Made by a program: the position numbers and the translations under genes | Notes under the pieces: generated by a model | Told to the model about the DNA's origin: nothing | Seen by the model: only the letters and a program-made list of their open reading frames with translations | Database searches by the model: none | NCBI GenBank assembly: GCA_038227105.1 | Contig: JBBRQB010000003.1 | Location: 1,054 to 65,053, forward strand | From: Candidatus Limnocylindria bacterium | GTDB lineage: Bacteria; Chloroflexota; Limnocylindria; P2-11E | Direction of reading: 5' to 3' | DNA length: 64,000 nucleotides | Shown here: one piece after another, positions 606 to 22,310 of the stretch | Position numbering within the stretch: the stretch's first letter is position 1 | How the letters are laid out: each line of letters starts with the position of its first letter

Positions 606-3600
606 ATGCCCGTGCGGTGTGCTTCCTGCGGCTATGGCAACCCGGCCGGTATGCGCTTCTGTGGCCAGTGCGGCACCGAGCTCGTCTCGGTCTGCCCGCG
701 GTGCTCGGAGACGCTGCCGGCAGGCTTCGTGTTCTGCGGAAAATGCGGCGCCCGCATTGGCGCCGAGCCGGAGGAGCGCGTCGGCGAGACGCGCCAGATC
801 ACCGTCCTCTTCGCCGATATTTCGGGGTTCACCGCGCTCGCCGAGCGGCTCGATCCAGGTGAGCTGCACGAGACCATGCGCACGGTCTGGGATCTGATCG
901 CGGCGGACATCCGCGCGAACGAGGGCATCATCGAGAAGTACATCGGTGATGCCGTCGTCGCCACATTCGGCGCGATGGGCGGCGAGACCGCCATGCATCC
1001 CGAGCAGGCACAGCGCGCGGCGCTCGCGATACTTGCCGCCCTCGAACGCGCGAACGAACGGATCGGCGAGCGGACGGCCCGGCGGCTGGCGCTCCGTGTC
1101 GGCGTGAATACCGGTGTCGCTTCGCTCGGGACGATCGGCGATCGCGAGAGCGAGTTCGGTGTCCTCGGCGACGCCGTGAACGTCGCGGCCCGACTCGAGC
1201 AGGCCGCCGAGCCCGGCGAGGTGCTCGTCGGCGACGCGACCTACCGCCGCACGCCCGGCCTCTTCACCTACGAGCCGCATCCACCGGTCGTCGCACGCGG
1301 CAAGAGCACGCCGGTCGTTGCGTGGCGGTTCGTCGGCGCGGCCCTCGAGGAGAGCGCACCGCAGCAACGCTCGCCGCTCGTCGGCCGGGACGCGGAGATG
1401 GGCACGCTCCTTGGCGCTCTGGACGATGCGCTCGCCGGGCGCGGTCGGCTCGTGTCGATCGTTGGCGAGAGCGGGCTCGGCAAGTCGCGGCTGATCGACG
1501 AGCTGATCGCCGACCCGCGGCTCCGCGGCGCGCGCGTCGCCCGCGTCCGCTGCACGTCATACGACCAGCACCGGGGGTATGGGACGATCGGTGACCTGCT
1601 GCGCCGGGTCATCGGCATCCGGCGCTCGGCATCGGCCGATCACGCGCAGCGGCTGATCAATGAGACGCAGCCTGACATCGAGCCGGACACACGCTCGCTC
1701 ATCCTCGCCGCGCTCGGATACGGCGTCGACATGCCGGCGATGGCCGGCGAGACCAAGCGCAGGCTCCTCGGGCGCGGCTTCGCGACGCTGCTCGCACGGG
1801 TCGCTTCGTCGCAGGGCCTCGTGATCGCGGTCGACGATCTCCAGTGGATCGACACGCCGTCGCTCGCGGCGCTCGGCCATCTCGCACAGGGCCTTGGATC
1901 CGCGCGGACGCTCGCGATCGTGGCATACCGTCCGGAGTTCACGGCGCCGTGGGCGACGACGAGGGAGCACCTCCAGCTGCGACTGCGACCCCTGGACACG
2001 ACGACGGCCGAGGCGCTCGTGCGCACGCTCGTGCCGAACGGCGGCGTCGACCGCGACATCGCCGAGCGCGCCCAGGGCAACCCCGCGTACTGCGAGGAGG
2101 CGGTCCGCTTCCTGACCTTCACCGGGGTCATCGTCGAGCGGGAGGGGTCCGGCCCGCTCGTCGACCTCTCGGAGCGGCCGGCCCTCCCCGATTCCCTGCA
2201 GCAGCTCCTGCTCCGGCGCGTGGATGCGATCGCCTCGCCCGAGCGTCGCGTCCTGCATGCGGCCGCGATCGTCGGTCGCACGTTCGATGCGGCGATGCTT
2301 CGCGCGATCTTCACGCAGGAGGTCGATGTCGACGGCGCGCTCGAGCGGCTGACGGCCGCGGGGATCGTCGAACCGGAGGGCGACCTGCACCGCTTCAAGC
2401 AGACCGGGCTCCGCGAGGTCGTGTACGGCGCGATGCTCGCGCGGCACCGCGAGGAGCTGCATGGCCGCGTCGGCCTCGCCATCGAATCGGGCCGGCCCGA
2501 GATCGCAGTGCAGCAGCCCGCGCTTCTCGCGCAGCACTTCGCGGCCTCGACGCACACGATGCGCGCCATCGAGTACGCGTCACGCGCCGCGGAGCGCGCG
2601 TCCTCGCTCCACGACCTCGAGAGCGCGTTGCACCATTACCGGCTCGCGGCTTCGCTGTCGTTGCGCCTCCCTGATGGGACGCTCGAGCGGGCGGGCGCGC
2701 TGCTCGCCGCATCGGACGCAGCAGCCGGACTCGGGCACCGCGACGATGCGCTCCTCGCCGTCGAAGAAGCGCTCGCGACGGGCCTTCCCGAGAGCGACCT
2801 GCGCGCCGCGCTGCGCCGCCGGGCGGGCAAGATCGCCGCACGCGCCGGCATGATCGAGCGGGCCGCTGAGCACCTGGCGGACGCGGAGCGTCTCACGCCG
2901 TCGTTCGGCAGCGAGCGCGCCGAGCTGACGCTGGCGAAGGCCGCGCTGGCGCGCGCCGACGACCGCCCATCCGAAGCGCTGACGATCGCCCGGATCGCCG
3001 TGCGGGAGGCACAGGGGGCCGGTGACGGCGTGCGTGAGCTCGAGGCCGAGGCCGCGATCGTCGCGTGCGCCACGGACTGCGGCCTGCCAGAAGAGGCCCG
3101 CCGGTCGCTCGTACGGTGCGCGGAGCTCGCGACTCGCCTCGGCGATCTGTCGGCGCTGTCGCGGACGCTCGCCGCGCAGGCCGTCGCGGCCCTCGACCGT
3201 GGCGCCGCGGAGGAGGCTGAGCCGCTGGCCCTCGAGCTCCTTGCGACGTCCGCCCGGGTCGGCGACATCGGAGGCCAGGCCCGGGCGCTGCGCGCGCTCG
3301 CGAAGGCCCAGGAGCTCCTCGGCCGCGAGTCCGAGGCGCATCGCGCGCTACAGCGCGCGCTCGCGCTCGCGGACCCGAACGTGCCCGACGCGCCGGCCGA
3401 GGCCGACGCCGCGCGTACGTTGCTCGCGCTCGGGCGGCTCGCGCTGCGGCAACCCGATCTCGCGCTCGCCGCAACGACGCTCGAGGAAGCGCGGGTCGTC
3501 GCGCCGCGCTCGGGCGATGAGATCCATCTCGCCGCGCTCATCTCGGCGGAGCTCGCGCGTGTCGCGATCTCGCGGGGCGCGATCGACGAGGCCCGGCAGC

Positions 3601-3950
3601 ACGCGGCGGCTGCGGCATCGGCGCAGCGCGCACACAAGTGCAGGCGGTGCGCCGCGGAGATCGGGCCCGCGCTGGTCGAGGCCGCGATCGCGGGTGACGA
3701 TCTGGCAGAGGCCGATGCCGCGCGCTCGACGGCACTTGAAGCGGCGTACCGGCTCAATCTTCCGATCGCGATCGCGTCCATGCGCCTCGCGGCCGGCCGG
3801 CTCCTGACGGCACGTGGCGACGCTGCCGGGGCGACCACGGAATACGGCGCCGCACTGGCGACGTTCGAGCGGCTCGGGCCGCGGCATCTCGTCGCCGAGA
3901 CCCGCGCGGCCCTCGTCGAAGTGGCGATCGCGCGACCGGAGTCGGCCTAG
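606..3950 (+). CDS. Multidomain signalling protein: N-terminal double zinc ribbon, class III adenylate/guanylate cyclase domain, P-loop (STAND/AAA-like) NTPase, C-terminal TPR-like helical repeats
   Basis: Zinc ribbons: CASCGYGN...CGQCG...CPRCS...CGKCG. Cyclase core: ITVLFADISGFTALAERL...IGDAVVATFG. Walker A: VGESGLGKSRL. Long Ala/Leu-rich repeat tail. 1114 aa, ATG start. Confidence 0.85.
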   Translation: MPVRCASCGYGNPAGMRFCGQCGTELVSVCPRCSETLPAGFVFCGKCGARIGAEPEERVGETRQITVLFADISGFTALAERLDPGELHETMRTVWDLIAADIRANEGIIEKYIGDAVVATFGAMGGETAMHPEQAQRAALAILAALERANERIGERTARRLALRVGVNTGVASLGTIGDRESEFGVLGDAVNVAARLEQAAEPGEVLVGDATYRRTPGLFTYEPHPPVVARGKSTPVVAWRFVGAALEESAPQQRSPLVGRDAEMGTLLGALDDALAGRGRLVSIVGESGLGKSRLIDELIADPRLRGARVARVRCTSYDQHRGYGTIGDLLRRVIGIRRSASADHAQRLINETQPDIEPDTRSLILAALGYGVDMPAMAGETKRRLLGRGFATLLARVASSQGLVIAVDDLQWIDTPSLAALGHLAQGLGSARTLAIVAYRPEFTAPWATTREHLQLRLRPLDTTTAEALVRTLVPNGGVDRDIAERAQGNPAYCEEAVRFLTFTGVIVEREGSGPLVDLSERPALPDSLQQLLLRRVDAIASPERRVLHAAAIVGRTFDAAMLRAIFTQEVDVDGALERLTAAGIVEPEGDLHRFKQTGLREVVYGAMLARHREELHGRVGLAIESGRPEIAVQQPALLAQHFAASTHTMRAIEYASRAAERASSLHDLESALHHYRLAASLSLRLPDGTLERAGALLAASDAAAGLGHRDDALLAVEEALATGLPESDLRAALRRRAGKIAARAGMIERAAEHLADAERLTPSFGSERAELTLAKAALARADDRPSEALTIARIAVREAQGAGDGVRELEAEAAIVACATDCGLPEEARRSLVRCAELATRLGDLSALSRTLAAQAVAALDRGAAEEAEPLALELLATSARVGDIGGQARALRALAKAQELLGRESEAHRALQRALALADPNVPDAPAEADAARTLLALGRLALRQPDLALAATTLEEARVVAPRSGDEIHLAALISAELARVAISRGAIDEARQHAAAAASAQRAHKCRRCAAEIGPALVEAAIAGDDLAEADAARSTALEAAYRLNLPIAIASMRLAAGRLLTARGDAAGATTEYGAALATFERLGPRHLVAETRAALVEVAIARPESA

Positions 3951-3952
3951 CC

Positions 3953-5212
3953 CTACGCGAACTCGCCTGGCGCGATGCGCTCGCGACCGTGCAGGTATGG
4001 CCGAAGCACTGACGGGATCACCAGCGAGCCGTCGGCCTGCTGGTAGTTCTCCATGATCGCGATCATCAGACGCGGGAGAGCGACGCCCGACGCATTGAGG
4101 ATGTGCGGGCGCTCCACCGTGCCCTTGGGGTCGCGCTTGAAGCGGATGTTCGCGCGCTCGGCCTGGAGCGAGCCGCCATCGCTGCACGATGAGACCTCGA
4201 GCCACTCGCCCATGACCGGGCCCCAGGCCTGGATGTCGAAGCCCTTCTTCGCGACGAAGCCGAGATCGCCCGAGCACCGCTCGGTCACCTGGACCGGGAT
4301 CTCGAGCCGCTCGATGATCATGGTCGCGCGCGCGGTGAGCTCCTCGAGCATCTTCCGCGACTCCTCGGGTGCCGTAAGGACGACCATCTCGACCTTGTCG
4401 AACCAGTGGACGCGCTTGATGCCTCGCACGTCGCGGCCGGCGCTCATCTTCTCCCGCCGGAAGCACGGCGTGTACGCGACATAGCGGATCGGCAGCTTCG
4501 CAAAGTCCACGGTCTCGTCGCGGTGAATGGACACGAGCTGCGGCTCCGCGGTCGGGATCAGCCAGATGTCGTCGTCCTCGTCGCGGTACAGGTTCTCGTC
4601 GAAGTGCGGCAGGTGCGCGCTCGCGATGAGCGTCTCCCGCTTCGTGACCGAGGGCGGGTAGATCTCGGTGAAGCCATCCTGCACGTGCAGGTCGAGCATC
4701 CAGGTGATGAGCGCGCGCTGCAGCGCCGCGCCGGCACCGCGGAGCAGGTAGAACCGCGAGCCGGAGAGCTTCGTGCCTCGCGGGATGTCCAGGATCCCGA
4801 GCCGCTCGCCGACGTCCCAGTGCGGCAGCCCGGGGAACGGCAGGGGTTTCGGCGCGTCCTCGCGGATGACCGGATTGTCCGCCTCGCCGGCGCCGATCGG
4901 CACGTCGGGATCGATGACGTTCGGGATCCAGAGCAGCGCCTCGTCGCGCTCGCCCTCGACGACCGATAGCTCCTTGTCGATGGCGGCGATGCGGTCTCCC
5001 ACCTCGCGCATCCGGGCCTTCACTTCGTCGCTCGGCGGACCGCCCTTGCTCGCCTTGTTGCGCTCGCCCCGGAGCGCCTCGACCTCGGAGCGAAGCTTCT
5101 TCGCGATCGCGTCCAGCTCGACGATACGGTCGAGCGGCGCGTCCGAGCCGCGCGCCTCGAGCATGGCGCGCACGCGGTCGGGATCCTCACGGATGAGATC
5201 GATGGGTCGCAC
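3953..5212 (-). CDS. serS: Seryl-tRNA synthetase
   Basis: N-terminus IDLIREDPDRVRAMLEARG aligns to the SerRS coiled-coil start. The class II core (FRREKMSAGRDVRGIKRVHWFDKVEMV, GDLGFVAKKGFDIQAWGP) is present. GTG start at 5212; the 673-aa ORF upstream of it is a GC-driven extension. Confidence 0.9.
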   Translation of the reverse strand: MRPIDLIREDPDRVRAMLEARGSDAPLDRIVELDAIAKKLRSEVEALRGERNKASKGGPPSDEVKARMREVGDRIAAIDKELSVVEGERDEALLWIPNVIDPDVPIGAGEADNPVIREDAPKPLPFPGLPHWDVGERLGILDIPRGTKLSGSRFYLLRGAGAALQRALITWMLDLHVQDGFTEIYPPSVTKRETLIASAHLPHFDENLYRDEDDDIWLIPTAEPQLVSIHRDETVDFAKLPIRYVAYTPCFRREKMSAGRDVRGIKRVHWFDKVEMVVLTAPEESRKMLEELTARATMIIERLEIPVQVTERCSGDLGFVAKKGFDIQAWGPVMGEWLEVSSCSDGGSLQAERANIRFKRDPKGTVERPHILNASGVALPRLMIAIMENYQQADGSLVIPSVLRPYLHGRERIAPGEFA

Positions 5213-5245: not shown

Positions 5246-6517
5246 ATGGGAGCGGACATCAGCGAGGTCGTCCTCGTCGCGTTCGAGGGCCCCGACCGCT
5301 ACTCCCTCGTCGGCGGCCTGGCCACCCGGATGAACGACCTGGCCGAGGCGCTCATCGCCCGCGGCCACCGGGTCCGGCACCTCTTCGTCGGCGACCCGTC
5401 CCTCGCGGCATTTGAAGAGCGGTCCGGTGGAATGCTCAGACTGGAGCGCTGGGGCCAGTGGATCTCGCGCTACCACCCAAAGGACGTCTATGACGGCGAG
5501 GACGGGAAGTGGCGCGACTTCACCCGCACGGTCCCGCCGCACCTGCTCGAAGAGGTCATCGTTCCGGCAGCCCGCGCGGGCAAGCGCGCTGTCCTCATGT
5601 TCGAGGACTGGCAGACCGCGGATGCCGCGATCAACACGTCCGCGCTCGCGACGCGCGCCGGTCTGCGTCACGCGATGACGTCGTTCTGGAACGCGAACAA
5701 CACCTACGGCTTCGGCTCGATCGACTTCGGTCTGCTCGAGAGCGCGGCGACGATCACGACGATCTCCCGCTTCATGCGCGCCGAGATGGTGAAGGACGCC
5801 GGCGTCGAGCCCGAGATCCTGCCCAACGGGATCGCCGAGCGCTTCGCGGTGCCGGTGCCGCCGGCCGACGCTCGCGCGATGCGTGCCGGCCTCGCCGGCC
5901 GGCCGAGCCTGGTGAAGGTCGCGCGGTTCGACGCGGACAAACGGTGGCTGTGGGCGATCGACGCGATCGCGCATCTACGCGACCTGGGTATGCACCCGCG
6001 CTTCATCATGCGCGGCAGCCGCAGCGACTACGCCGACGTCGTGGGCGAGCGGATCCGCGACCACGGCCTCACGATGGAGCGCGTGACGTTGGGCGCCGAC
6101 ACGGCGCCGAAGGACCTGGCCGCGGCGTTGCGATCCGTCGAAGCGGACGTCGCCTTCCTCGATTTCTTCGTCAGCGAGCGGTCGCTCCGGGCGCTGTACG
6201 CGGCTGCCGATGGCGTGCTCGCGAACTCGGAGAAGGAGCCGTTCGGCCTGGTCGGCCTCGAGGTCATGGGTGCCGGCGGCCTCGCGTTCGTCGGCCGCAC
6301 CGGCGAGGACTACGCGGTGCCGTACGGCAACTCCGTGGTCGTGCAGACCGACGATCCGCGCGAGCTCATGACGCACCTTGTGACGCTCGGGTCACGGCCG
6401 GAGCTCGAAGAGCGGATCCGCGCGGACGGCCAGCGCACCGCGGAACGCTATGTGTGGCCGCGGATCCTCGACGGCATCGAGGCCGCCTGGGAGGCCGCTG
6501 CCGCGCTCGCGTCCTAG
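5246..6517 (+). CDS. GT4-family glycosyltransferase (Rv3032-like alpha-glucosyltransferase candidate)
   Basis: C-terminal E-x7-E motif EPFGLVGLEVMGAGG. N-terminal Rossmann start VVLVAFEGPDRYSLVGGLA. 423 aa. Confidence 0.75.
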   Translation: MGADISEVVLVAFEGPDRYSLVGGLATRMNDLAEALIARGHRVRHLFVGDPSLAAFEERSGGMLRLERWGQWISRYHPKDVYDGEDGKWRDFTRTVPPHLLEEVIVPAARAGKRAVLMFEDWQTADAAINTSALATRAGLRHAMTSFWNANNTYGFGSIDFGLLESAATITTISRFMRAEMVKDAGVEPEILPNGIAERFAVPVPPADARAMRAGLAGRPSLVKVARFDADKRWLWAIDAIAHLRDLGMHPRFIMRGSRSDYADVVGERIRDHGLTMERVTLGADTAPKDLAAALRSVEADVAFLDFFVSERSLRALYAAADGVLANSEKEPFGLVGLEVMGAGGLAFVGRTGEDYAVPYGNSVVVQTDDPRELMTHLVTLGSRPELEERIRADGQRTAERYVWPRILDGIEAAWEAAAALAS

Positions 6518-7269
6518 AGACGCTCGTAGATCCCATACACGAGCGGCCGCCGGATCACGATCGGCTTGAGCGGATCGCGCGCGAGCACCGCGTGCGTGCC
6601 GCGGGTGTAGCCCTGGATACGCCGCGACTGCGAGACCCAGTCGTCGAGCGCCGGAAGGTCCATCGTGGGCAGCGAGTAGAAGAAGTGGCCCGAGCGGATC
6701 CGCTTCAGCTGGCCTTCACGGACGAGGCGCGCGACGGCGCGGTCACTGTGATGGTTGTCGACGACCGCGTCGCGGCGCTCGTAGAGCGCGCCAATGGTCC
6801 GCCCTCCGCGCACCACGCGCGGCTGGTGACCGGAGTCCGGTCGCAGATCGATGATCGTCCCGCCCAAACGCACCGCCGCGTGGGCCTGTCGGAGGGCATC
6901 GACCATGCCCGTTCTCCTGATGCATCAGAGGGACCATGAGAAGAGCGCGGTGTCGAAACGCTCACGGCCGACGCCGAGATCCTGTCCGGCCGATACCGTG
7001 AACGTGACGTTGCGCAGGCCGCGCCGTCGCGCTTCGCGGCGCGCGCCGCGGATCGCCTCCGTGTCGGGATCCACACCGACGGCGGACCGCGCGATCGGCG
7101 CGATGAGCCAGGCGAGCCGTCCGGTGCCGGTACCGATGTCGAGCACGTCCTTGCCGCGGAAGTAGCGATCGGCTCGAAGCTGGCGCAGCTCGATGTCGTC
7201 GGAGGGACGGACCGCGCTGGCGCAGCCGATGCGGCCGACCTCACCCACGTCACCGACCGGCTCAGCCAT
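6514..7269 (-). pseudogene. Class I SAM-dependent methyltransferase interrupted by an in-frame TGA at 6925-6927 (N-terminal 7269..6928, C-terminal 6906..6514)
   Basis: Motif I VLDIGTGTGRLA and motif II ERFDTALFSWSL lie before the TGA. Motif III LRQAHAAVRLGGTIIDL lies after it, in the same frame. ATG at 7269 sits 2 nt after the GH57 stop. Confidence 0.6.
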
Positions 7270-8941
7270 ACCCCTCGCTCGCTCCCCGGAGCATCGCACC
7301 GCCCTGGCCGGTCACAGCCGCGAGCCGCGACGGGTCGAGCAGCGGCTGCTTCAGCTCCGCCGGAGGCTCCGCGCCCGCATACCACCAGATGACCTCGCAG
7401 TTGGCCCGGAAGAGCTCGTCGAACACCCGGTCCTCGGGGCTCGAATTGCGGCTCGAATACCACCAGAACCAGTCGCTGCCCTCCGCGACCATGAGCGGCG
7501 TGCGGACCGACGCGGGCATCTCACGCAGCGAGCCCCACTGCTCCTGCGCGAACCGGCGCGTGCGCTCGAGCATCTGCCATGCGCGCTGGTGCGCGGGCTC
7601 GCCGGACCAGACCTTGAGGTTCGCGTCGATCCACGACCCGGTGTGGAGCGACGGCAGCGTGATCTTCGCCGGATGCGCGTCCAGGAAGTCGGAGACGCGG
7701 ACCGTCTCGAAGCGCTCGTCGGCTTCGAGCGTCCCATAGAGCGTCCGCAGGAAGTCGTTGCCGTTGTTCGGGTACGACTCCCACGCGTTCTCCCCGTCCA
7801 GGATGATCGACGCGATGTACGGACCGCCATCGTCCGGCAGGCGGTCGCGTGCGGCCTCGAGCTTCCAGATCAGGTCGCCGACCGCGTCGTTCGGCGTCAT
7901 CGATCCATAGGTGAAGCCGATGCGGTCCGAGATCTCGCGGTCGCGGAACAACGCGGTCACCCCGTTTTGCAGCCGGTATGGCTGATACAGCAGCTCGGGG
8001 TGCACGAGCGCGCCGATGTCGTCGCGCTCGAACGTGATGTTCGCGGATCGGCCGAGCACTCCTTCATCCGACGCGAACCACTCGATCCGGGCCTGCTTGA
8101 TCGCGTCGGCCGCCTCCGGCGAGACCGCACCCTCGGACGGCCACACGCCGCGCGGCTTTACGCCGAAGCCGCGAACGTGCGAGACGACCGCCTCCTCCAG
8201 CTGGTACAGCGCGTCGTCCGGGTACGCGAACGGCGGATCGGGCAGCAGCGCGCCGGGGTCCGTTCGCAGCGCCGAGCGGGTGTCGATGATGAGCGGGAGG
8301 ATCGGGTGGTAGTACGGGGTCGTGAGGATCTCGACTCGTCCGTCGCGCTCGAGGCTCCGATAGAGGTGGGGCGCACCCGACGCCATGAACCGCTGGCGGC
8401 CGATGACGTAGTGCACGTCCTCGCGGGTGAACCGGCGCGCGCGGTCGCGCAGATCGCGCAGCCGCTCGTCGGACGCGATGTCCTCGGGATCGATCCACGC
8501 GAGGTTGAACCAGAGCGCGAGATCGACGAAATAATCGTCGGACAGGAGCTCGGGCCGGCCCTTGGTCGCCAGCGCGAGCTGCAGCAGCCGGCGATATTCG
8601 TCGTGCTGCGCGATCACGTTGCCGTGATGGATGGAGAAGAAGCGCGCGAGCATGTGCTCCTTCTCATCCGGTGAGAGCGTGCCTTCGACGGTGCGCATCG
8701 TCACCCGCGTGTCCTCGTCGTCCGCGCCGCGCGCGTAGTCCTCGAGCTGGTCGCGCAGCGACGGAACCATGGTGAAGCTCGCCTTCACCTTCGGGAACTC
8801 GTTCAGCAGCCGCGCCATGTGGAGGTAGTCCTTCGAGGCGTGGAGCCGGACCCAGGGAAGGACGAACTCGCTCGTCTGCGGATGCTTGTAGTAGGGCTGG
8901 TGCATATGCCAGATGATCGCGACGGCCAGCTTCCCGTTCAT
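7262..8941 (-). CDS. GH57-family glycoside hydrolase (alpha-amylase / branching-enzyme family)
   Basis: Hallmark GH57 N-terminus AVAIIWHMHQPYY. 559 aa. 4-nt overlap with the lysK stop. Confidence 0.9.
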   Translation of the reverse strand: MNGKLAVAIIWHMHQPYYKHPQTSEFVLPWVRLHASKDYLHMARLLNEFPKVKASFTMVPSLRDQLEDYARGADDEDTRVTMRTVEGTLSPDEKEHMLARFFSIHHGNVIAQHDEYRRLLQLALATKGRPELLSDDYFVDLALWFNLAWIDPEDIASDERLRDLRDRARRFTREDVHYVIGRQRFMASGAPHLYRSLERDGRVEILTTPYYHPILPLIIDTRSALRTDPGALLPDPPFAYPDDALYQLEEAVVSHVRGFGVKPRGVWPSEGAVSPEAADAIKQARIEWFASDEGVLGRSANITFERDDIGALVHPELLYQPYRLQNGVTALFRDREISDRIGFTYGSMTPNDAVGDLIWKLEAARDRLPDDGGPYIASIILDGENAWESYPNNGNDFLRTLYGTLEADERFETVRVSDFLDAHPAKITLPSLHTGSWIDANLKVWSGEPAHQRAWQMLERTRRFAQEQWGSLREMPASVRTPLMVAEGSDWFWWYSSRNSSPEDRVFDELFRANCEVIWWYAGAEPPAELKQPLLDPSRLAAVTGQGGAMLRGASEGYG

Positions 8942-10542
8942 GTCGCGCGCGCGGCCTCGCTGAGTCGGCGCCTGACGAATATCGGATCCAGAGTGGTCAA
9001 CATCCAGGCAGCCCTGGGCCCGGCGGCCTTCCCGATGAACGAGTAGTAGAGCGCCTCGAACGCGGCCTTCGTCACCTTGCCCTCGGGGGTCGTGAGGCCG
9101 ACCTCTTTCGCGATCTCGTAGAGGCGCTCCTGCATCTGCTCCGGATCCGTGATCTTCCCCACCTCGGCGGCCGCACGCTCGAGGAAGGCTCGCTGCTGAT
9201 CGGTGAGCGTCGCGGCGACCGGTGGAAGCTCGGGGGCGACCGCGAAGCGCGCCTCGTCAGGAGCCCAGCGTTCGAGCCAGATCTTCGCGAGGGCGATGCG
9301 CTTCTCGAGGTCAGCGCTCTCGCCGTCCGTGAGCGGCGCCTTCTTGCGCTTCTCGGCCTCGGCGTGCGGTTCGATGCTCGGGATCTGCAGCCAGTCCGCA
9401 ACGGTGCCGAACCGCACGCGGAAGATGACCGGCTCCACGAAGTCCGTCACTTGCGAGAGGTGCCACACCTTTCCCAGATCGCTCAGCGGATCCTCGAGAT
9501 ACGCATCGGCGCAGCGGTCGTACTCGTCGTACAGCCGCGGAAGTGTGTTGCCGGCCGGATCGAACTCGACGGCCCGCTTCGGGTGCGTGCGCAGCATGAG
9601 GAAGCGGACGATCTCGCCGGGATAGATCTCGACGAGCTCCACCGCCGAAGCGCCGATGCCCTTTGAGGTCGCCATCTTCTTGCCGCCGATCGTGAGGAAC
9701 TCGTGCTGCAGACCCGCTGGTGGCTCGCGCTTCCACACCGCCCGGTAGATCTCGTTCGCGCGGTCCCGCGATCCGCCAGCGGTCAGGAGATCCTTGCCGC
9801 CCTCCTCATATGTGACGTCGAAGAGATCCCACATCGCGCACCACTGGAGGTTCCAGGGGAGCTTGCCATTGCCCTTGAACGGCGAGATACGCCCGGTGTG
9901 CCCGCAACCCTCCGCCCACGTCACGTACTCCCTGCGGCACTCGTACGCCACGGTGGTGCCGTCGAAGTCCGTCGCGTGCGTCGTCCCGATCTTCCCGCAG
10001 CTCTCGCAGATGATCCAGATGGGGACCCAGTTCGGGTCCTTCTGAACGTTCGAGACCTCGGCGTAGACCCGTCGCACATCGTCGGCGTGGCGCAGCACGA
10101 GATCGATCTCGTGGTCGAGCTTCCCCGACTGGTACAGATCGCGCAGCCAGTGGATCTCCTCTGGATGGATCCCGACGCGCTCGAACGTCGAGAGGAACCG
10201 CTGCGCGTGATAACGGGCGAAGTCGCTCGCGACCGCCGGATCGGGAGACGGGATCTTGAAGAACGGCTTCCCCATGTGCTCGGCCATCCCGGCCTGCTGC
10301 CGCATCGACTGCGAGTCCATCGGGTCGTAGTCGTCGATGGTGAAGACATAGCGCACGTTCAGCCCGTGGTCGCGGAACGTCCGGTAGAGGGCGTCGGTGA
10401 TCACGGGCCCGCGGAGGCTCGAGATCGGCACCGGGCCGGACGGCGTCTTCGAGTCGCGGATGACGTGTGGGATGTCCTTCGACAGCGACGCGGCGACCGC
10501 GTCGGCCCAGAAGAGCTCCCGGTCGGTCGGCGTCAGGGTCAT
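8938..10542 (-). CDS. lysK: Class I lysyl-tRNA synthetase homolog (LysK-like) with a divergent HIGH region
   Basis: Aligns end-to-end with archaeal/spirochaete class I LysRS: TPSG...DDYD, CESCGK...GCGH zinc knuckle, KMATSKG (KMSKS-like) and the C-terminal LYYSFIGKAAGPR. The HIGH position reads PISS instead of HVGN. Confidence 0.75.
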   Translation of the reverse strand: MTLTPTDRELFWADAVAASLSKDIPHVIRDSKTPSGPVPISSLRGPVITDALYRTFRDHGLNVRYVFTIDDYDPMDSQSMRQQAGMAEHMGKPFFKIPSPDPAVASDFARYHAQRFLSTFERVGIHPEEIHWLRDLYQSGKLDHEIDLVLRHADDVRRVYAEVSNVQKDPNWVPIWIICESCGKIGTTHATDFDGTTVAYECRREYVTWAEGCGHTGRISPFKGNGKLPWNLQWCAMWDLFDVTYEEGGKDLLTAGGSRDRANEIYRAVWKREPPAGLQHEFLTIGGKKMATSKGIGASAVELVEIYPGEIVRFLMLRTHPKRAVEFDPAGNTLPRLYDEYDRCADAYLEDPLSDLGKVWHLSQVTDFVEPVIFRVRFGTVADWLQIPSIEPHAEAEKRKKAPLTDGESADLEKRIALAKIWLERWAPDEARFAVAPELPPVAATLTDQQRAFLERAAAEVGKITDPEQMQERLYEIAKEVGLTTPEGKVTKAAFEALYYSFIGKAAGPRAAWMLTTLDPIFVRRRLSEAARAT

Positions 10543-10546
10543 CGCG

Positions 10547-11014
10547 CTAACGGACGGCGACGATCTTGAGCTCCACTTCGCCGCGCGGCACCGACGCGCG
10601 AACGAGGTCACCCTTTTTGTGGCCGATGAGGGCCTTTCCGACCGGCGACTCGTTGCTTATACGTCCTTCGGCCGGTGCCGCCTCGGCGGAGCCGACGATG
10701 ACGTACTGATCGCGCTCGCCGTTCGATTCGATCGTGACGTGGCTGCCGATCTCGACGATATCGTGATGCTCGTTCTCGTCGATGATCGTCGCGTTCTTGA
10801 CCATGCTCTCGAGCGTCATGATCCGCCCCTCGAGAAAGGCCTGATCGTTCTTCGCCTGCTCGAGCTCGGAGTTCTCCGAGTAATCGCCGAACTGCATGGC
10901 CGCGTGGATGCGCTCCGCGACCTCCTGCCGCTTGGCGGTGCGAAGCTCCTCGAGCTCCGCTTCGATCTTCTTCAGGCCGTCCGCTGAGATCGGGACCGGT
11001 TTGTCAGGGCTCAT
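10547..11014 (-). CDS. greA: Transcription elongation factor GreA
   Basis: LKKIEAELEELR coiled coil and GDYSENSE motif, followed by the C-terminal FKBP-like domain. ATG at 11014. Confidence 0.9.
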   Translation of the reverse strand: MSPDKPVPISADGLKKIEAELEELRTAKRQEVAERIHAAMQFGDYSENSELEQAKNDQAFLEGRIMTLESMVKNATIIDENEHHDIVEIGSHVTIESNGERDQYVIVGSAEAAPAEGRISNESPVGKALIGHKKGDLVRASVPRGEVELKIVAVR

Positions 11015-13286: not shown

Positions 13287-14656
13287 GCCGTGCGGCCTGC
13301 TTCGGGGATGAAGTGTCCGACGGTCCGCGAGCGCTCGACGAACGTCTCTCCTGCGGCCTGCTGCACGTCGAACGGTGTCACCGCCGCGAGCGCGTCGTAC
13401 CACGCGCCGATCGATGGCGCAGCCGCCGTCGAGAGCAGGCTCCCGAGGCGGTACGCGCGCCAGGTGACCGTGTCGCTCGGGAATGCGACGCTCGCTAGTA
13501 GGCCGCGCCGAACGCGCCCGAACTCCTGCTCGTCGAGCGGCTGATCGGCGAGGCGCTGCAGCTCGTGCAGCAACACGTCCTCGACGGTGCGGTGCGCCAC
13601 ACCTGGACGGAGCGTCGCCTCGAGCGTGAACAGATACGGATCCTTCGTCAGCCCGAAGCTCGCGTCCACATCGGTCGCGAGCTCCTTCTCGACGAGCGCC
13701 CGGTACAACCGCGACGAGCGGCCCGATGCCGAATCGCCGCCGCCACCACCGGCGAGAGCGACGGCGACCGCGCTGAGCGCCGCCGCGCGCGGGTCGGACG
13801 CCGCGACGGTGTGGAAGCCGGCCTGGACGATCGGCAGCGCGCCACCGGCACGGTGCACGACGAGTCGCTTCTCGCCCATCTGCGGCGGCTCCGGCGCGAG
13901 CGGCGGCGCGACCACCGGCTCTTCGCCGACCCTGCCGAACGCGGCGGCCGCCTTCTCGATCAGCGTCTCCGCGCGATCGTCACCGACCACGACCACGTAC
14001 GCGTTGTTCGGTGCGTAGTGCGTGCGGTAGTGCGCGTAGAGGCCGTCGCGCGTCATGAGCTTGATCTCGAACTTGCTGCCGATGACACCCTGCCCGTAGG
14101 GATGCCGGTCGAACGCGACCGCCTGGAGCGACTCGCCGAGGAGGAACGATGGATCGTTCTCGAGACCTTCGCGCTCGCTCACGATCACCGTCCGCTCGGC
14201 TTCGACCTCTTCGGTCGCGAGGAGCGCGTTCCGCATGCGATCGGCCTCGAGCTCGAGGGCCACGTCGTAGCGGTCGCGCGGAACGGTCTCGAAATAGCAC
14301 GTGACGTCCTCGTTCGTGAACGCGTTCCACTGCGCGCCGTAGCGCGCGAGCAGCCGGTCGAGGTCGCCCTTCGGATGGGTCGGCGTGCCCTTGAACAGCA
14401 TGTGCTCGAGGAAATGCGACATGCCGGTCGTGCCAGGGACCTCGTTGCGGCCGCCCACGTGGTACCAGACCCAGAGCGAGACGACGGGTGCGTGACGCGC
14501 CTCCAGGGCGTGGATCACGAGGCCGTTGTCGAGCCGCCGGGTCGCGGGGACGTCGATGAATGCGGTCTGCTCGGGGATACCTAGAACGTTACGGCGTTCC
14601 CCCGAACTGCGCGGCGAACACCGCCCGTGCGGCCGCTCCGGCGTCCTGGCTGCCAA
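13283..14656 (-). CDS. M16-family zinc metallopeptidase (active-site HxxEH)
   Basis: HFLEHMLFKGT motif and downstream E. Start uncertain: the ATG at 14656 overlaps the PBP 3' end by 68 nt. Confidence 0.75.
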   Translation of the reverse strand: MAARTPERPHGRCSPRSSGERRNVLGIPEQTAFIDVPATRRLDNGLVIHALEARHAPVVSLWVWYHVGGRNEVPGTTGMSHFLEHMLFKGTPTHPKGDLDRLLARYGAQWNAFTNEDVTCYFETVPRDRYDVALELEADRMRNALLATEEVEAERTVIVSEREGLENDPSFLLGESLQAVAFDRHPYGQGVIGSKFEIKLMTRDGLYAHYRTHYAPNNAYVVVVGDDRAETLIEKAAAAFGRVGEEPVVAPPLAPEPPQMGEKRLVVHRAGGALPIVQAGFHTVAASDPRAAALSAVAVALAGGGGGDSASGRSSRLYRALVEKELATDVDASFGLTKDPYLFTLEATLRPGVAHRTVEDVLLHELQRLADQPLDEQEFGRVRRGLLASVAFPSDTVTWRAYRLGSLLSTAAAPSIGAWYDALAAVTPFDVQQAAGETFVERSRTVGHFIPEAGRTA

Positions 14657-16658
14657 GCAAGCCGGGCTTCTCCTCGAAGATCACGGCCATCGCGAGCTTC
14701 GGACCGTCATACGGCGCGAACCCGATGAACCACGCGTCGGGATTCCCCGACGGCGTCTCGGCGGTGCCGGACTTCCCGGCCACGGCCGTCGGGAAGTTGA
14801 GGAACTTGAAGTACACGGTCCCGTTCGGGTCGTTGACCACCGCGCGCATGCCGTCACGGATGAGCGAGAGATCCGTGGGCGTGGTCGTCGCGGTGCGCAG
14901 CTGCGTGGCGGCGTACGTCTTGACCACAACACCGGCCCGCGTGCGGATCTCGGTGACGAGCCGGGGCTTCCACACGACGCCGTCATTCGCCAGCGCGGCC
15001 GTGTAGTTCGCCATCTGCAGCGGTGTCGCGAGGAGATCGCCCTGGCCGATCGCGAGGTTCGTTGCGTCGCCAGGGTTCCAGGGACGGTTCGCCGGGCTCG
15101 GCACATTGCCGTCGGCCTCGATGACGAAGTCGATGTCCGTCGCCTTCCCCAGGCCGAAGCTCAGCGCCTCCTCCGGCAGGAGGCGCGTGTTCGTGTCGTT
15201 GAGCCGCTTGCCCAGCTCGTAGAAGAACGTGTTGCACGAGCGCGCGAGCGCGGTGCGTAGATCGATCGGTCCAAGGTTCCCGGTCTCGTGATTGAGCTGG
15301 ACGATGCCGTAGCCGTTCCACGAAGCCGGGCAGTCGATCCGCTGACCGGCCTTGTACAGGCCGTTCTTCAGCGCGGCCGCCGCGGTGATCGGCTTGAACG
15401 AGGACCCGGTGGGGTACGTGCCTGAGACCGCGCGGTTCACCAGCGGCCGCTTCGGATCGCTGTTGAGGGCGGCGATCGTCGCGCTGTCGCCGCTGACGAA
15501 CACGTTCGCGTCGAAGGATGGACGGCTCGCGAGCACGAGCACCTCGCCCGACCACGGATCCTCGGCCACGATCGCGCCCTTCTGATCACCGAGCGCCTTC
15601 TCCGCGGCGGCCTGCAGCTTTGGATCGAGCGACAGCACGGCATCGTTCCCGGGAATGGCGGCCGTCTCGCCGAGCAGCTCGACCGGACGCTCGTCGGGAT
15701 CCACGATCGAGAGCCGCCAGCCGAAGCTGCCGCCGAGGACGTCGTCGAGCTGCTGCTCGAGCCCGTTCTTCCCGATGAGGTCGCCGGCCGAGTAGCCACG
15801 CGAGGCGCGCTTCTGCGCATCGGCGTCGCTCGCTTCGCCCATGAAGCCAAGCAGCTGCGACGCGAGACCCGTCGGGTAGCTGCGCACGCGCTGGGCCTGG
15901 AGCTGCACGCCCTCGATGACGGTGAGGCGCGCCCGCAGCGCCGTGAAGGCGTCGCCGGTCAGCGTCCGTATGGGAACGAAGCTATCCGGCCGCACCCACG
16001 ATGCGTTGTACTTCGCTTTGATGTCGTCGGTCTTGAGACCGAGGACGCTCGAGAGGCTCGCCAGCATGCCCGCCTCGTTCTTGATCTGCTCGGGCACGAC
16101 GCCGACCACGGCCGCGTCGCTGAACGTCGCGAGCTCGGTCCCTTCGCGCGCGATGATCCGGCCGCGGCTCGTGGGGAGGCGCGTCATGCGCACCAGCCGT
16201 CCGCTGATGAGGCGCGGGAGGATGGCCTCGGGCGTCCAGTCGATCTTCCAGACCGCCTTGTCCTTGTCGCCGGTCATCACGAGGTTCAGGAACGTGTCGC
16301 GGCGGAGGTCGCCGACACGCTGTGTGTGGAACGTGACCGCGAGCGGCACCGTCGCGCGGCGTGGATCGGGAGAGCCGTTGGCGCCGGCCGGATGCGCAGC
16401 GACACCCGAGGTCGCCTCGAGCGAGGTGAGCGTCATCTCCTGCGCGATGCGCGGGAGCCGCGCGATGAAGCCGTCCTCGCCGACCGTGGCCTTGCTCTCG
16501 TCCGCGAGCAGCGCCCACATCGCCGGGTAGTCACCCTTCACCCACGCGGCGGCATAGGCCTTCGCGACGGGCTCGGCCGCGGGCGGCTGCGGCTCGCACG
16601 CGGCGAAGATCGACGCAATGACCGCGAGCACGGAGAGGGCGATCGCGCTGCGCGTCAT
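14589..16658 (-). CDS. Penicillin-binding lipoprotein (class B transpeptidase with an NTF2-like MecA_N domain, Rv2864c-like)
   Basis: Lipoprotein signal LAVIASIFAAC. Transpeptidase motifs SSFKP (SxxK), SCN (SxN) and KSGT (KTG). Confidence 0.85.
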   Translation of the reverse strand: MTRSAIALSVLAVIASIFAACEPQPPAAEPVAKAYAAAWVKGDYPAMWALLADESKATVGEDGFIARLPRIAQEMTLTSLEATSGVAAHPAGANGSPDPRRATVPLAVTFHTQRVGDLRRDTFLNLVMTGDKDKAVWKIDWTPEAILPRLISGRLVRMTRLPTSRGRIIAREGTELATFSDAAVVGVVPEQIKNEAGMLASLSSVLGLKTDDIKAKYNASWVRPDSFVPIRTLTGDAFTALRARLTVIEGVQLQAQRVRSYPTGLASQLLGFMGEASDADAQKRASRGYSAGDLIGKNGLEQQLDDVLGGSFGWRLSIVDPDERPVELLGETAAIPGNDAVLSLDPKLQAAAEKALGDQKGAIVAEDPWSGEVLVLASRPSFDANVFVSGDSATIAALNSDPKRPLVNRAVSGTYPTGSSFKPITAAAALKNGLYKAGQRIDCPASWNGYGIVQLNHETGNLGPIDLRTALARSCNTFFYELGKRLNDTNTRLLPEEALSFGLGKATDIDFVIEADGNVPSPANRPWNPGDATNLAIGQGDLLATPLQMANYTAALANDGVVWKPRLVTEIRTRAGVVVKTYAATQLRTATTTPTDLSLIRDGMRAVVNDPNGTVYFKFLNFPTAVAGKSGTAETPSGNPDAWFIGFAPYDGPKLAMAVIFEEKPGLLGSQDAGAAARAVFAAQFGGTP

Positions 16659-16661
16659 CCG

Positions 16662-18224
16662 CTAGTAGCCGGCCGCGTAGCCCTCGCGCCGCGGATCCGC
16701 TCCGCCGGAGAAGACGCCGTTGCCGTCGATCGCGATCGCCTGCGCGCCACCCGTGATCTCGGCCCAGTCGCCAAGGACCTGCAGGTCATGTCCCCTCGCC
16801 GCCAACGCCTTGCGCACCTGCTCAGGGAAACGGGCCTCGAGCTGCAATGTTCTGCCTGTGTCGTGATACCAGCGCGGCGACTCGATCGCCTCCTGGACAT
16901 CGAGCCCGTGGTCGATGAGCCCGACCGCGAGCTGGAAGTTCGTCTGCACCTGCGCGTGGCGCCCGGGGGTCCCGAAGACGAAGCGCGGCGACTGGCCGTC
17001 GAGGACGATGACGGTGTTGAGCGTGTGCACCGGCCGCTTGCCGGGTGCGAGCGCGTTCGGCGACCGCGGGTCGAGTGAGAACCCGGAGAGCCGGTTATTT
17101 AACAGGATGCCGGTGCCCGGCACGATCGTCGCCGCGCCGAACGCGCTGAACACGCTCTCGATGAGCGAGACGGCGTTCCCGTCGCGGTCCACGACCGCCA
17201 GATAGGTCGTGTCGGCGGGTAACGCGGCCGGCTCGACGCGGTCGGCGGCCCTCGCCCCCACAGCGCGGCGGCGCTGCGCGACGAATGCGTCCGCGTACAG
17301 CTCCTGGGCGTCGAAGCGGACCATGCGCGGATCGCCGGCCATCGCGTCGCGATCGGCGAACGCGAGCTTCTTGATCTCGACCATCGTGTGGATCTGATCG
17401 GCGCTCCCCCAGCCCATACCGCGCAGATCGAGACCCTCCGCGATGGCGAGTTCCTCGAGCAGCACGTGACCCTGCGACACCGGCGGCTGACCCACGACCC
17501 GGAGGCCGCGGTATGCGGTCTCGATCGGGTCACGGCGATCCGTGCCGTGCGCGGCGAGGTCGGCGATGCCGATCCAGCCGCCGAGGCTCGCGATGCCGAC
17601 CGCGAGGCGCTCGGCGAGATCCCCACGGTAGAAGGCCTCGGTGCCATCGGACGCGATCGCGCGCAAGGACCCGGCGAGCTCGGGCTGCTGGAGCATCTCG
17701 CCCGGTCGCGGGCGCCTCCCGAGCGGGCTGTATGTGCGGGCCGCGGTCGGATCGGCGCCCAGGCGCGCGACCTCCTCGCCGATCGCCTCGGAGAGCAGGT
17801 CGCTCACCGGGAAACCTTCGGCCGCGTAGGCGATCGCGGGCGCGAGAGCCCGGTCGATCCCGAGCCTGCCGTGATCGTTCAGCATGTCGCCCCACGCGGC
17901 GACCGCGCCGGGCACCGTCGCGAGCCGTGCGCCGCGGTCGCCGTAGCCCTGCGCGAAGGCCGCGTCGTCCACGGTCGCGGGTGCCGCCCCCGAGCCGTTG
18001 TACGCAGTGACGGTGCGGCTCCGCGCGTCGTAGACGAGGGCGAACACGTCACCGCCGATCGAGCAGCGCTGCGGCAGGACGACGGCACAGACCGCAGCCG
18101 CTGCGATCGCCGCGTCGACCGCGCTTCCGCCGTCGCGCAGTGCCGCGAGGCCGGCCGCCGTCGCGAGGTGATGCCCGCTCGCGACGATGCCGTTGGCGGA
18201 TCGCACGGTGGGGCGATGGGACAT
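16662..18224 (-). CDS. ggt: Gamma-glutamyltranspeptidase
   Basis: Catalytic threonine region TTYLAVVDRDGNAVSLIES...GILLNNRLSGF. 520 aa. Confidence 0.85.
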   Translation of the reverse strand: MSHRPTVRSANGIVASGHHLATAAGLAALRDGGSAVDAAIAAAAVCAVVLPQRCSIGGDVFALVYDARSRTVTAYNGSGAAPATVDDAAFAQGYGDRGARLATVPGAVAAWGDMLNDHGRLGIDRALAPAIAYAAEGFPVSDLLSEAIGEEVARLGADPTAARTYSPLGRRPRPGEMLQQPELAGSLRAIASDGTEAFYRGDLAERLAVGIASLGGWIGIADLAAHGTDRRDPIETAYRGLRVVGQPPVSQGHVLLEELAIAEGLDLRGMGWGSADQIHTMVEIKKLAFADRDAMAGDPRMVRFDAQELYADAFVAQRRRAVGARAADRVEPAALPADTTYLAVVDRDGNAVSLIESVFSAFGAATIVPGTGILLNNRLSGFSLDPRSPNALAPGKRPVHTLNTVIVLDGQSPRFVFGTPGRHAQVQTNFQLAVGLIDHGLDVQEAIESPRWYHDTGRTLQLEARFPEQVRKALAARGHDLQVLGDWAEITGGAQAIAIDGNGVFSGGADPRREGYAAGY

Positions 18225-18612: not shown

Positions 18613-19136
18613 GACGGCTCAGTGTGCAGGAAGAGGCGGGTGTAGCCGACCGGCTCCCCGGGCAGCAGCGCCTGCGGGGAGGTCCCGTCCAGGTGCATGA
18701 GCATCGCCTGCTCGTCGCAGGCGGACCGCTTGGGGCACACCGGACACTCCGAGGCGCTCTTCTCGGGCAGCCGCCCGAGGCTCGTCAGCGTGAAACCGCA
18801 CGTGGTGAAGAACTCGGGGACCAGCGTGAGCGCAAAGACACGTCGCAGGCCCCGCTCGCGCGCGCGCTGGACGCAAGCCTCGACGATCGCCTTGCCGACG
18901 CCGCGTCCCGCGGCCTCGGGCGCGACGGCGAGCGATCGCAGCTCGGCGAGATCGCTCGTCAGGGTCGCGAGGGCCCCGCACCCGAGGAAGCCATCATCGT
19001 CGGCAACGAGGAAGTCGGCGAGATTGGTCTCGAGGAAGGTCTCGGTGCGCTCGAGCATCCGGTCCTCGGCGGCGTAGCGATCGATGAGCGCCTTCATCGG
19101 AGCGATGTCCGATGTTCGAGCCGCGCGGACGATCAC
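18609..19136 (-). CDS. argA: Short single-domain GNAT N-acetylglutamate synthase (M. tuberculosis Rv2747-type)
   Basis: VRAARTSDIAPMKALIDRYAA ... GCGALATLTSDLAELRSLAV ... RRVFALT matches the short mycobacterial ArgA. 175 aa. Overlaps the argH stop. Confidence 0.75.
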   Translation of the reverse strand: MIVRAARTSDIAPMKALIDRYAAEDRMLERTETFLETNLADFLVADDDGFLGCGALATLTSDLAELRSLAVAPEAAGRGVGKAIVEACVQRARERGLRRVFALTLVPEFFTTCGFTLTSLGRLPEKSASECPVCPKRSACDEQAMLMHLDGTSPQALLPGEPVGYTRLFLHTEPS

Positions 19137-21834: not shown

Positions 21835-22310
21835 ACGGGCTTTCCCACTCCATATTCAGCGAGCCGCTTGTTGATCCCGCGCGCGCGCGCCGGATCGTGT
21901 GCGGCGACGAACACCGTGTCGTCGCCGGCGATCGTCCCGATGACATCATTGAAAGCCGACGTGTCGAGCGCGATGGCCAGCGCGTTGGCCGTGCCCGGCG
22001 GCGTCTTCAGGATCACGAGGTTCCCCGCGACCGCACTCGACACCGGGTATTCGTCGCAGAACCTGCGGAGCCGCTCGAGACCGCCGGACAATGGCACCAC
22101 CGCCGGCGGGGCATACACGTGCGCTCCGTCGCGCGGCACCTTCACCAGGCCGATCTCGACGATATCGCGCGACACCGTCGCCTGCGTCGCAGCGAAGCCG
22201 GCCGCGCGCAGCGCGCGGACGACGTCCTGCTGCGTCGCGAGGCGCTTCTCGCTGACGAGACGCACGAGCGTCTGCTGGCGGTGCTGCTTGCGCGCGTTGA
22301 GCTCGTTCAT
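21831..22310 (-). CDS. argR: Arginine repressor
   Basis: N-terminal winged helix (SRDIVEIGL). C-terminal oligomerisation/arginine-binding motif GTIAGDDTVFV. Confidence 0.9.
   Translation of the reverse strand: MNELNARKQHRQQTLVRLVSEKRLATQQDVVRALRAAGFAATQATVSRDIVEIGLVKVPRDGAHVYAPPAVVPLSGGLERLRRFCDEYPVSSAVAGNLVILKTPPGTANALAIALDTSAFNDVIGTIAGDDTVFVAAHDPARARGINKRLAEYGVGKPV

Follow-up and report, generated by a model that had tools for sequence, protein, structure and literature searches.

The HIGH sequence is one of the two signatures by which the class I aminoacyl-tRNA synthetases are defined, and in one of these enzymes, tryptophanyl-tRNA synthetase (TrpRS), it naturally reads TIGN. For lysyl-tRNA synthetase (LysRS), which comes in a class I (LysK) and a class II (LysS) form, the Chloroflexota mostly use class II. 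In the class I synthetases, ATP in the ground state is bound mainly via backbone atoms, and it is the transition state on which HIGH acts (PMC5919687). Here, we describe a lysK-like gene at positions 8938..10542 (minus strand) of a 64,000-nucleotide stretch of contig JBBRQB010000003.1 from a Candidatus Limnocylindria bacterium (phylum Chloroflexota), with this whole stretch being referred to as the window. By profile, fold, and orthology, the encoded protein is a class I LysRS, yet it is without one defining feature, the HIGH signature. Our comparisons suggest a lineage-wide, old, and strongly selected HIGH-less class I LysRS that is apparently new, and no description of a class I LysRS lacking HIGH was found in a search of the literature.

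The open reading frame of the window lysK extends from 8938 to 10611 on the minus strand (8938..10611), with an in-frame ATG at 10542 giving a protein of 534 residues, and the same ATG is used in the gene calls of two other, independent contigs. The product is a full-length homolog comprising a Rossmann catalytic domain, a presumed Zn-binding insertion, and a helical anticodon-binding domain. It passes the curated profile cut-offs over its whole length, with 290.8 bits for the NCBIfam equivalog TIGR00467 (cut-off 147.55; profile positions 2-513 of 515) and 250 bits for the Pfam family PF01921 (cut-off 27; E 4.5e-74). Residues 12-527 align end to end with residues 4-519 of the LysRS from Pyrococcus horikoshii (PDB ID: 1IRX; E 1.6e-49). 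Moreover, an AlphaFold2 model built with 71 relatives as input (predicted local distance difference test, pLDDT, 90.4; predicted template modeling score, pTM, 0.84) has the same catalytic and anticodon-binding architecture as 1IRX, and in a Foldseek search its top match, by far, was 1IRX_A, with template modeling (TM) scores of 0.80/0.84 over 535 columns. Orthology to bona fide lysK is also indicated by the locus and by vertical descent, but the HIGH signature after the first strand is not found. A first-pass annotation, made from the letters of the window alone, had claimed class I LysRS homology across the entire protein, and the profiles, the 1IRX alignment, and the model are all in agreement with this.

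At the HIGH position, the window protein has P39-I40-S41-S42 (10417..10428, minus strand), whereas 1IRX has HVGN and the closest related clade has HVGS or HLGS. The T33-P-S-G36 loop lying just ahead of the motif (10435..10446, minus strand) is invariant in the clade and in the family. In the alignment, 'tPSGpvPISSlRg' of the window protein stands opposite 'tPSGyvHVGNfRe' in 1IRX, with no gaps around the motif. In the model, PISS lies at the N-terminus of a helix (residues 40-58) directly following a strand (residues 26-32), and this is the place of HIGH. The replacement of HIGH by PISS noted in the first-pass annotation is thereby upheld in the 1IRX alignment, the clade alignment, and the model. 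A motif that is intact but shifted by a few residues, or simply misaligned, was also considered and is excluded, as the alignment is gap-free with 1IRX and with 98 other class I LysRS representatives that served as the comparison set.

To see how far the replacement extends, we used the best 120 database clusters (65-100% identity to the window LysK), of which 118 are full-length in the family alignment. The first motif position is without His in all 120. Among the 118 full-length members, it is Pro in 114 and Leu in three, and the third position is Ser in 117 and Gly in one; in the other representatives, the first position is His (88), Thr (two), or Asn (two) and the third is Gly in 92 of 92. 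In the GTDB species genomes, a scan brought up 74 loci of the HIGH-less clade, and the motif result was the same. Clade-wide, the motif can be written as [P/L/T]-[I/V]-[S]-[G/S/A/N/H] and is mostly P-I-S-G/S, with Ser at the third position in 72 of the 74 species and the fourth position taking the same small residues as in the canonical enzymes. The variants found within the clade, namely TIGS (locus L059), PIGH (L062), and LISN (L030, L033, and L068), are nested in the tree rather than basal, and Gly is back at the third position in L059 and L062 (2 of 74 species) and also in database cluster P0119 (PIGS). Outside the clade, there are class I LysRS sequences in which the His is replaced by Thr or Asn and the Gly is kept (clusters P0129, P0154, P0160, and P0233).

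The codons of the motif vary synonymously, with Ser encoded by TCG, TCC, TCA, or TCT (always TCN) and Pro by CCG, CCC, or CCT, which implies that the new residues themselves are under purifying selection. In fact, a change from Gly to Ser (TCN) takes two base changes and a change from Pro to His only one, yet His has been regained by no member of the clade. As a side observation, typical Limnocylindria loci (LysK 63-83% identity, same synteny) were encountered inside metagenome-assembled genomes of other taxa (L010, L017, L037, L048, and L057); these are GTDB representatives named Saccharimonadales, Acidiferrales, Udaeobacter, and Bathyarchaeia, and the contigs in question are probably mis-binned.

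The closest relatives of the HIGH-less LysK form a second large clade (about 45% identity) from organisms named 'Candidatus Limnocylindrales bacterium' at NCBI, and in a neighbor-joining tree the HIGH-less clade is monophyletic beside it. In this sister clade, His and Gly of HIGH are each present in 100% of 119 full-length sequences. Its members (e.g., L077 and L203-L209) resemble the window LysK in coming from the same class of organisms, in occupying a greA-lysK-serS locus, and in having GKDL, W-N-L-x-W, and LRGP, but they differ in that the HIGH His and Gly, Tyr280, Glu233, and the second Lys of the KMSKS-like loop (99%) are all kept. Many representatives of the sister clade at the 50% cluster level (P0140, P0165, P0175, P0182, P0254, and P0270-P0273) are fragments or fusions of 333-740 residues on very long ENA contigs, which is consistent with long-read frameshift errors and not with real truncated genes.

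Beyond HIGH, much of the protein is as in the family. A total of 43 near-invariant family positions are kept, and these include the four Cys residues of the presumed Zn-binding insertion (C179, C182, C202, and C213; 9904..10008, minus strand), W230, W234, and W238, the G-K-D and G-G-S motifs, E281, M290, and S293, together with Q386, W422, F495, Y499, G508, and P509 in the C-terminal, anticodon-binding domain. With this domain and its family-invariant residues intact, the tRNA-independent role that had been floated in the first-pass annotation is not favored. Radical change is confined to four near-invariant positions (H39P, G41S, H252L, and Y280H), of which H252L is common to the sister clade and Y280H occurs also in six canonical representatives. 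The former lies in G249-K-D-L252 (9787..9798, minus strand), the counterpart of the family GKDH, and the latter (H280; 9703..9705, minus strand) replaces the family Tyr, i.e., Tyr268 of 1IRX, and is fixed in the clade. In W230-N-L-Q233-W234 (9841..9855, minus strand), both charges of the family W-[KR]-x-[ED]-W are gone, with the Glu-to-Gln change being specific to the clade. Trp218, His240, and Tyr268 of 1IRX are what we take, after Terada et al. (2002) and mutagenesis by the Ibba laboratory, to be lysine-pocket residues, and at these positions the window protein keeps the Trp (W230) and has Leu for His (L252, as in the sister clade) and His for Tyr (H280). By comparison, the replacement of Glu41 of 1IRX by Gly was dropped as a clade-specific loss, being general to the whole bacterial 'HVGS-LRG' subfamily.

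The KMSKS-like mobile loop of the window protein reads K289-M-A-T-S-K294-G (9658..9678, minus strand), and the low pLDDT of the model at residues 290-298 is as expected for such a loop. Its first Lys is conserved in 100% of the HIGH-less clade and is invariant in the sister clade as well, whereas the second is Lys in 74-78% of the HIGH-less clade against 99% of the sister, with several different residues as replacements. Thus, the earlier statement that the KMSKS-like motif is retained holds for the window protein and for the first Lys, but not for the second Lys across the clade. Because this second position is Lys in only 56% of diverse class I LysRS representatives, its loss is by itself no proof of inactivity. 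Fourteen clade-specific invariant residues are found around the pocket, among them R29, T49, Q233, C235, D239, Y245, E247, N263, Y266, W270, G277, and H280, with Arg29 sitting on the first strand four residues ahead of TPSG. From these sequence comparisons, the ATP site looks rebuilt on the stem of the HIGH-less clade.

Concerning selection, omega (the ratio of nonsynonymous to synonymous divergence) was taken from 11 close species pairs with a synonymous divergence (dS) of 0.12-0.55, with deep pairs excluded as dS reaches a plateau of about 0.6-0.7 in these GC-rich genomes. The median omega is 0.09 for lysK, compared with 0.05 for both the GH57 gene and greA, 0.08 for GT4, 0.10 for an M16 peptidase, and 0.20 for a mutY-like gene, and lysK is under strong purifying selection. 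Using the adjacent seryl-tRNA synthetase (SerRS) as an internal clock, we obtained LysK/SerRS ratios of amino-acid distances of 1.12 from 528 pairs of the HIGH-less clade and of 1.09 from 28 pairs of the sister. Identity between the two clades is 45% for LysK, 43% for SerRS, and 57% for GreA, and since LysK is no more diverged between them than SerRS, there was no LysK-specific burst. Moreover, the bit scores of HIGH-less LysK to outgroup enzymes are only 7-10% below those of the sister, and the root-to-tip lengths in the neighbor-joining tree are similar in the two clades. Taken as a whole, there is no sign of decay or of general acceleration in the HIGH-less lysK. A hint of extra divergence in the catalytic domain, drawn from entropy and identity, was set aside, since the two clades differ in depth and the C-terminal domain evolves fast in the sister, which confounds the comparison; the SerRS-calibrated test took its place.

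The gene neighborhood places the window lysK at an ancestral address. Its upstream partner greA (10547..11014, minus strand) ends, with a TAG stop, 4 nt before the lysK start, and this greA-lysK pair is conserved in 70+ loci of the HIGH-less clade. The ancestral downstream partner is serS (3953..5212, minus strand; probable GTG start at 5212), which in the HIGH-less clade is still found downstream on the same strand, but beyond an inserted cassette. This cassette includes a GH57 glycoside hydrolase (7262..8941, minus strand) as its first gene, a methyltransferase (6925-7269, minus strand), a hypothetical protein of 130 residues (6514-6906, minus strand), and a divergent GT4 glycosyltransferase (5246-6517, plus strand). 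In nine loci of the sister clade, the order is greA-lysK-serS without the GH57 cassette, serS overlaps the lysK stop, and HVGS or HLGS is kept. The first-pass annotation had also proposed translational coupling of lysK to the GH57 gene, and the ATGA overlap of stop and start is present at 8938-8941; the coupling is real yet secondary, as only this branch has received the cassette between lysK and serS. The window lysK is the positional ortholog of a bona fide lysK and no extra copy at a new place.

The same arrangement of greA and lysK, with serS close by, also occurs in two Patescibacteria loci, and in 40 of the 90 high-GC metagenomic loci that could be tested, a class II lysS lies directly 3' of greA on the same strand (median gap 37 nt), which makes the position after greA the usual home for the housekeeping LysRS of either class. 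Separately, we observed that an unrelated class I lysK fills this post-greA position in Limnocylindria and Patescibacteria. It looks as though one LysRS class had been displaced in place by the other, that is, by a gene that is not its ortholog.

A class II LysRS was searched for with tblastn using an E. coli LysS sequence, and neither the 64-kb window nor the 1.1 Mb of related loci yielded one. The hunt was extended to metagenomes, where contigs were scanned for the GC-rich codon pattern of FRNEG....HNPEFT and the resulting 120 loci were put in order of their tetranucleotide distance and of their likelihood under a 6-mer classifier for which the 1.1 Mb of Limnocylindria DNA had served as training set; loci with a greA of their own (at most 52% identical to the window GreA) were left out. 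No Limnocylindria class II LysRS emerged from this pattern hunt, which is weak negative evidence. Its top lysS candidate (L198) proved to belong to the Planctomycetota (Phycisphaerae). Likewise, no LysRS gene lists and no KO or COG tables for Limnocylindria genomes were found in the literature and its supplements. The lysK gene itself is single at its locus and present in every clade member examined. The first-pass annotation had left the choice between a lineage that tolerates an odd motif and a paralog existing beside a class II LysRS, and the locus, the greA slot, and the SerRS-matched rate lean to the former.

We give an even chance to the reading that the window lysK still encodes the housekeeping LysRS of one branch of Candidatus Limnocylindria, with a non-canonical ATP site, and favor it because of the locus, the single-copy and full-length architecture, the residues for tRNA and ligand binding that are kept, an evolutionary rate on a par with that of SerRS, and the lack of any other LysRS in the sequence examined. 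Under this housekeeping reading, lysK would have been inherited vertically at the ancestral greA-lysK-serS locus with its ATP site rebuilt, and the enzyme would still bind tRNA(Lys), Zn, and lysine and make Lys-tRNA(Lys). ATP might be held by backbone contacts and by the invariant first Lys of the KMSKS-like loop. The role of the HIGH His in the transition state may have become dispensable in an enzyme whose activation step is tRNA-dependent, or a slower rate may be tolerated by slow-growing oligotrophs. Alternatively, clade-specific invariant residues such as Arg29 and His280 could have taken over from the HIGH His. A LysRS without HIGH is mechanistically conceivable given the backbone contacts to ATP, the TIGN of TrpRS, and the rare class I LysRS sequences with Thr or Asn at the first position.

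Nonetheless, a number of observations weigh against a working synthetase. To our knowledge, every active class I synthetase has the Gly of HIGH, as have 92 of 92 other class I LysRS representatives, and we know of no enzyme with Pro and Ser at the HIGH positions that has been shown to work. At comparable diversity, the second loop Lys is present in 36 of 46 members of the HIGH-less clade against 118 of 119 of the sister (Fisher p = 1e-5), and such a release alongside the loss of HIGH is not what one would expect of an enzyme in need of rescuing its ATP chemistry. The two clades are separated by 34 fixed differences, and among the 15 that can be polarized with outgroups, 12 fall on the HIGH-less stem and three on that of the sister (p = 0.035). 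The catalytic domain holds nine of these 12, with E233Q and Y280H, at near-invariant positions, among them. When pairs of equal SerRS divergence are compared, the LysK divergence is 15-24% higher in the HIGH-less clade than in the sister. Here, GreA is elevated even more (p-distance 0.162 in L003-L076 versus 0.067 in L077 and L203-L209, at a SerRS distance of 0.15-0.25), so this excess is not specific to LysK. That the tblastn search for a class II LysRS covered the window and 1.1 Mb of related loci is to be counted on the same side.

Several of these points would be natural if a second LysRS, most likely of class II, had been gained by transfer and lysK had afterward lost its ATP-dependent lysine activation, a course of events that we hold to be a serious but lesser possibility. 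With the same standing, the protein might then have been retained for a new and strongly selected role in which its surfaces for tRNA(Lys) and ligand binding are still in use, such as that of a sensor or regulator responding to tRNA(Lys) or lysine, or of an enzyme that acts on pre-made Lys-tRNA. The replacement of the HIGH His and Gly together with the release of the second loop Lys, a loss of the HIGH Gly that is without precedent, the 12 versus three excess of stem changes at family-conserved catalytic positions, the fourteen invariant residues particular to the clade around the pocket, and the switch of the immediate downstream partner from serS to a glycan-metabolism cassette all fit such a change of function. 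There are also HIGH-less precedents derived from synthetases, such as the cyclodipeptide synthases, in which a class I core is without HIGH, a conserved Ser was gained at that place, and aminoacyl-tRNA is used instead of ATP (PMC2922099). However, an analogous role for Ser41 as an acyl-accepting nucleophile is disfavored, as the residue is not invariant and gives way to Gly in two of the 74 species (L059 with TIGS and L062 with PIGH) and in cluster P0119 (PIGS). More broadly, the window protein has one hallmark of pseudoenzymes and paralogs, the loss of catalytic signature residues (HIGH His and Gly, with the second loop Lys relaxed), but not a separate locus, a truncation, or an acceleration after duplication, and only the stem excess at conserved sites is seen. 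Known paralogs derived from synthetases are usually truncated and sit elsewhere in the genome beside a canonical gene, whereas lysK stays single and full-length in the housekeeping slot at a rate equal to that of SerRS, and no second LysRS was seen in the window, the 1.1 Mb of related loci, or the weak directed search. The specific proposal that the protein is no longer lysine-activating, with the parts that bind tRNA(Lys), zinc, and ligand preserved and its nucleotide site rebuilt (P-I-S-G, Arg29, Gln233, His280, and a free loop Lys) for a new, strongly selected role within the greA operon, is one that we put forward only tentatively.

It is improbable, in our estimation, that lysK encodes a redundant LysRS of low activity beside a class II enzyme that does most of the work, in the manner of LysRS1 and LysRS2 in Bacillus cereus. 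Both classes are indeed documented together in a few bacteria (PMC2916919), and a backup role would agree with the relaxed second loop Lys. A backup, though, should have disappeared from many lineages or come under regulation, for instance through a T-box, whereas this gene is universal in the clade, evolves at the rate of SerRS, lies a mere 4 nt from greA, and is accompanied by no Rfam element. As for a decaying pseudogene or a sequencing or assembly artefact, nothing speaks for it beyond the unusual motif itself, and we consider it next to impossible given the intact frames of 530-545 residues in more than 118 clusters and in 74 species from many studies and assemblers, an omega of about 0.09, and the synonymous variation of the motif codons.

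With regard to the remaining content of the window, neither a T-box or other leader RNA (no Rfam family at the gathering threshold) nor a tRNA gene was found anywhere in the 64 kb. The GH57, methyltransferase, and GT4 genes of the cassette presumably resemble the mycobacterial methylglucose-lipopolysaccharide genes Rv3030-Rv3032. Convergent with serS and ending 2 nt before its stop is a gene (606-3950) for a protein of 1114 residues with double zinc ribbon, adenylate/guanylate cyclase, and AAA_16 ATPase domains. Farther away, arginine genes occupy 19133-25318 on the minus strand, these being an argH-like lyase (19133-20509), argG (20506-21834), argJ (23106-24347), and argC (24296-25318), with genes for a penicillin-binding transpeptidase (14589-16658) and a gamma-glutamyltranspeptidase (16662-18224) nearby, all of which is ordinary housekeeping content.

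The window LysK is one of two things, the first class I synthetase in nature to work without the HIGH signature or an enzyme with a changed job. If it is the sole LysRS of this abundant soil and freshwater lineage, then a natural class I enzyme can do without HIGH, and the HIGH-bearing sister (45% identity, same locus) provides a ready pair for dissecting the contribution of HIGH and the residues that substitute for it. Should a class II LysRS be there as well, we would have an uncommon instance of a full-length synthetase taking on a new role with no duplication, truncation, or relocation behind it. Either way, automatic annotation names the protein 'lysine--tRNA ligase' and leaves the anomaly unflagged.

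Set against canonical LysK, as represented by P. horikoshii 1IRX and Borrelia burgdorferi LysRS1, the window protein is alike in length, domain order, and fold (TM 0.80-0.84), and shares the TPSG loop, the four Cys residues, W-x-x-x-W-x-x-x-W, G-K-D, G-G-S, E281, the K-M-S-x-S start of the loop, and the anticodon-binding domain. In contrast, the canonical enzymes have H-x-G-x where the window clade has P-I-S-[G/S/A], GKDH instead of GKDL, Tyr268 instead of His, and an acidic residue in W-[KR]-x-[ED]-W instead of Gln, and the second loop Lys is unconstrained in the window clade. TrpRS (TIGN) and the rare class I LysRS sequences with Thr or Asn are comparable in having another residue for the first His of HIGH, with TrpRS being active and the others presumed to be so, though all of them keep the Gly, a position at which Ser is found in 72 of the 74 species of the Limnocylindria branch. 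Cyclodipeptide synthases, Glu-Q-RS/YadB, HisZ, and EpmA/PoxA are similar in being derived from the catalytic core of an aminoacyl-tRNA synthetase, but they lack an anticodon-binding domain or lie at separate loci beside a canonical synthetase, whereas the window LysK is full-length and at the canonical locus. Finally, bacteria having both classes, such as Bacillus cereus, with its T-box-associated lysK, and Symbiobacterium, offer the parallel of a class I LysRS in a mostly class II phylum. There, however, the class I gene has an intact HIGH, a separate and regulated locus, and a dispensable role, while the window lysK has no T-box and sits in the greA-serS housekeeping operon.

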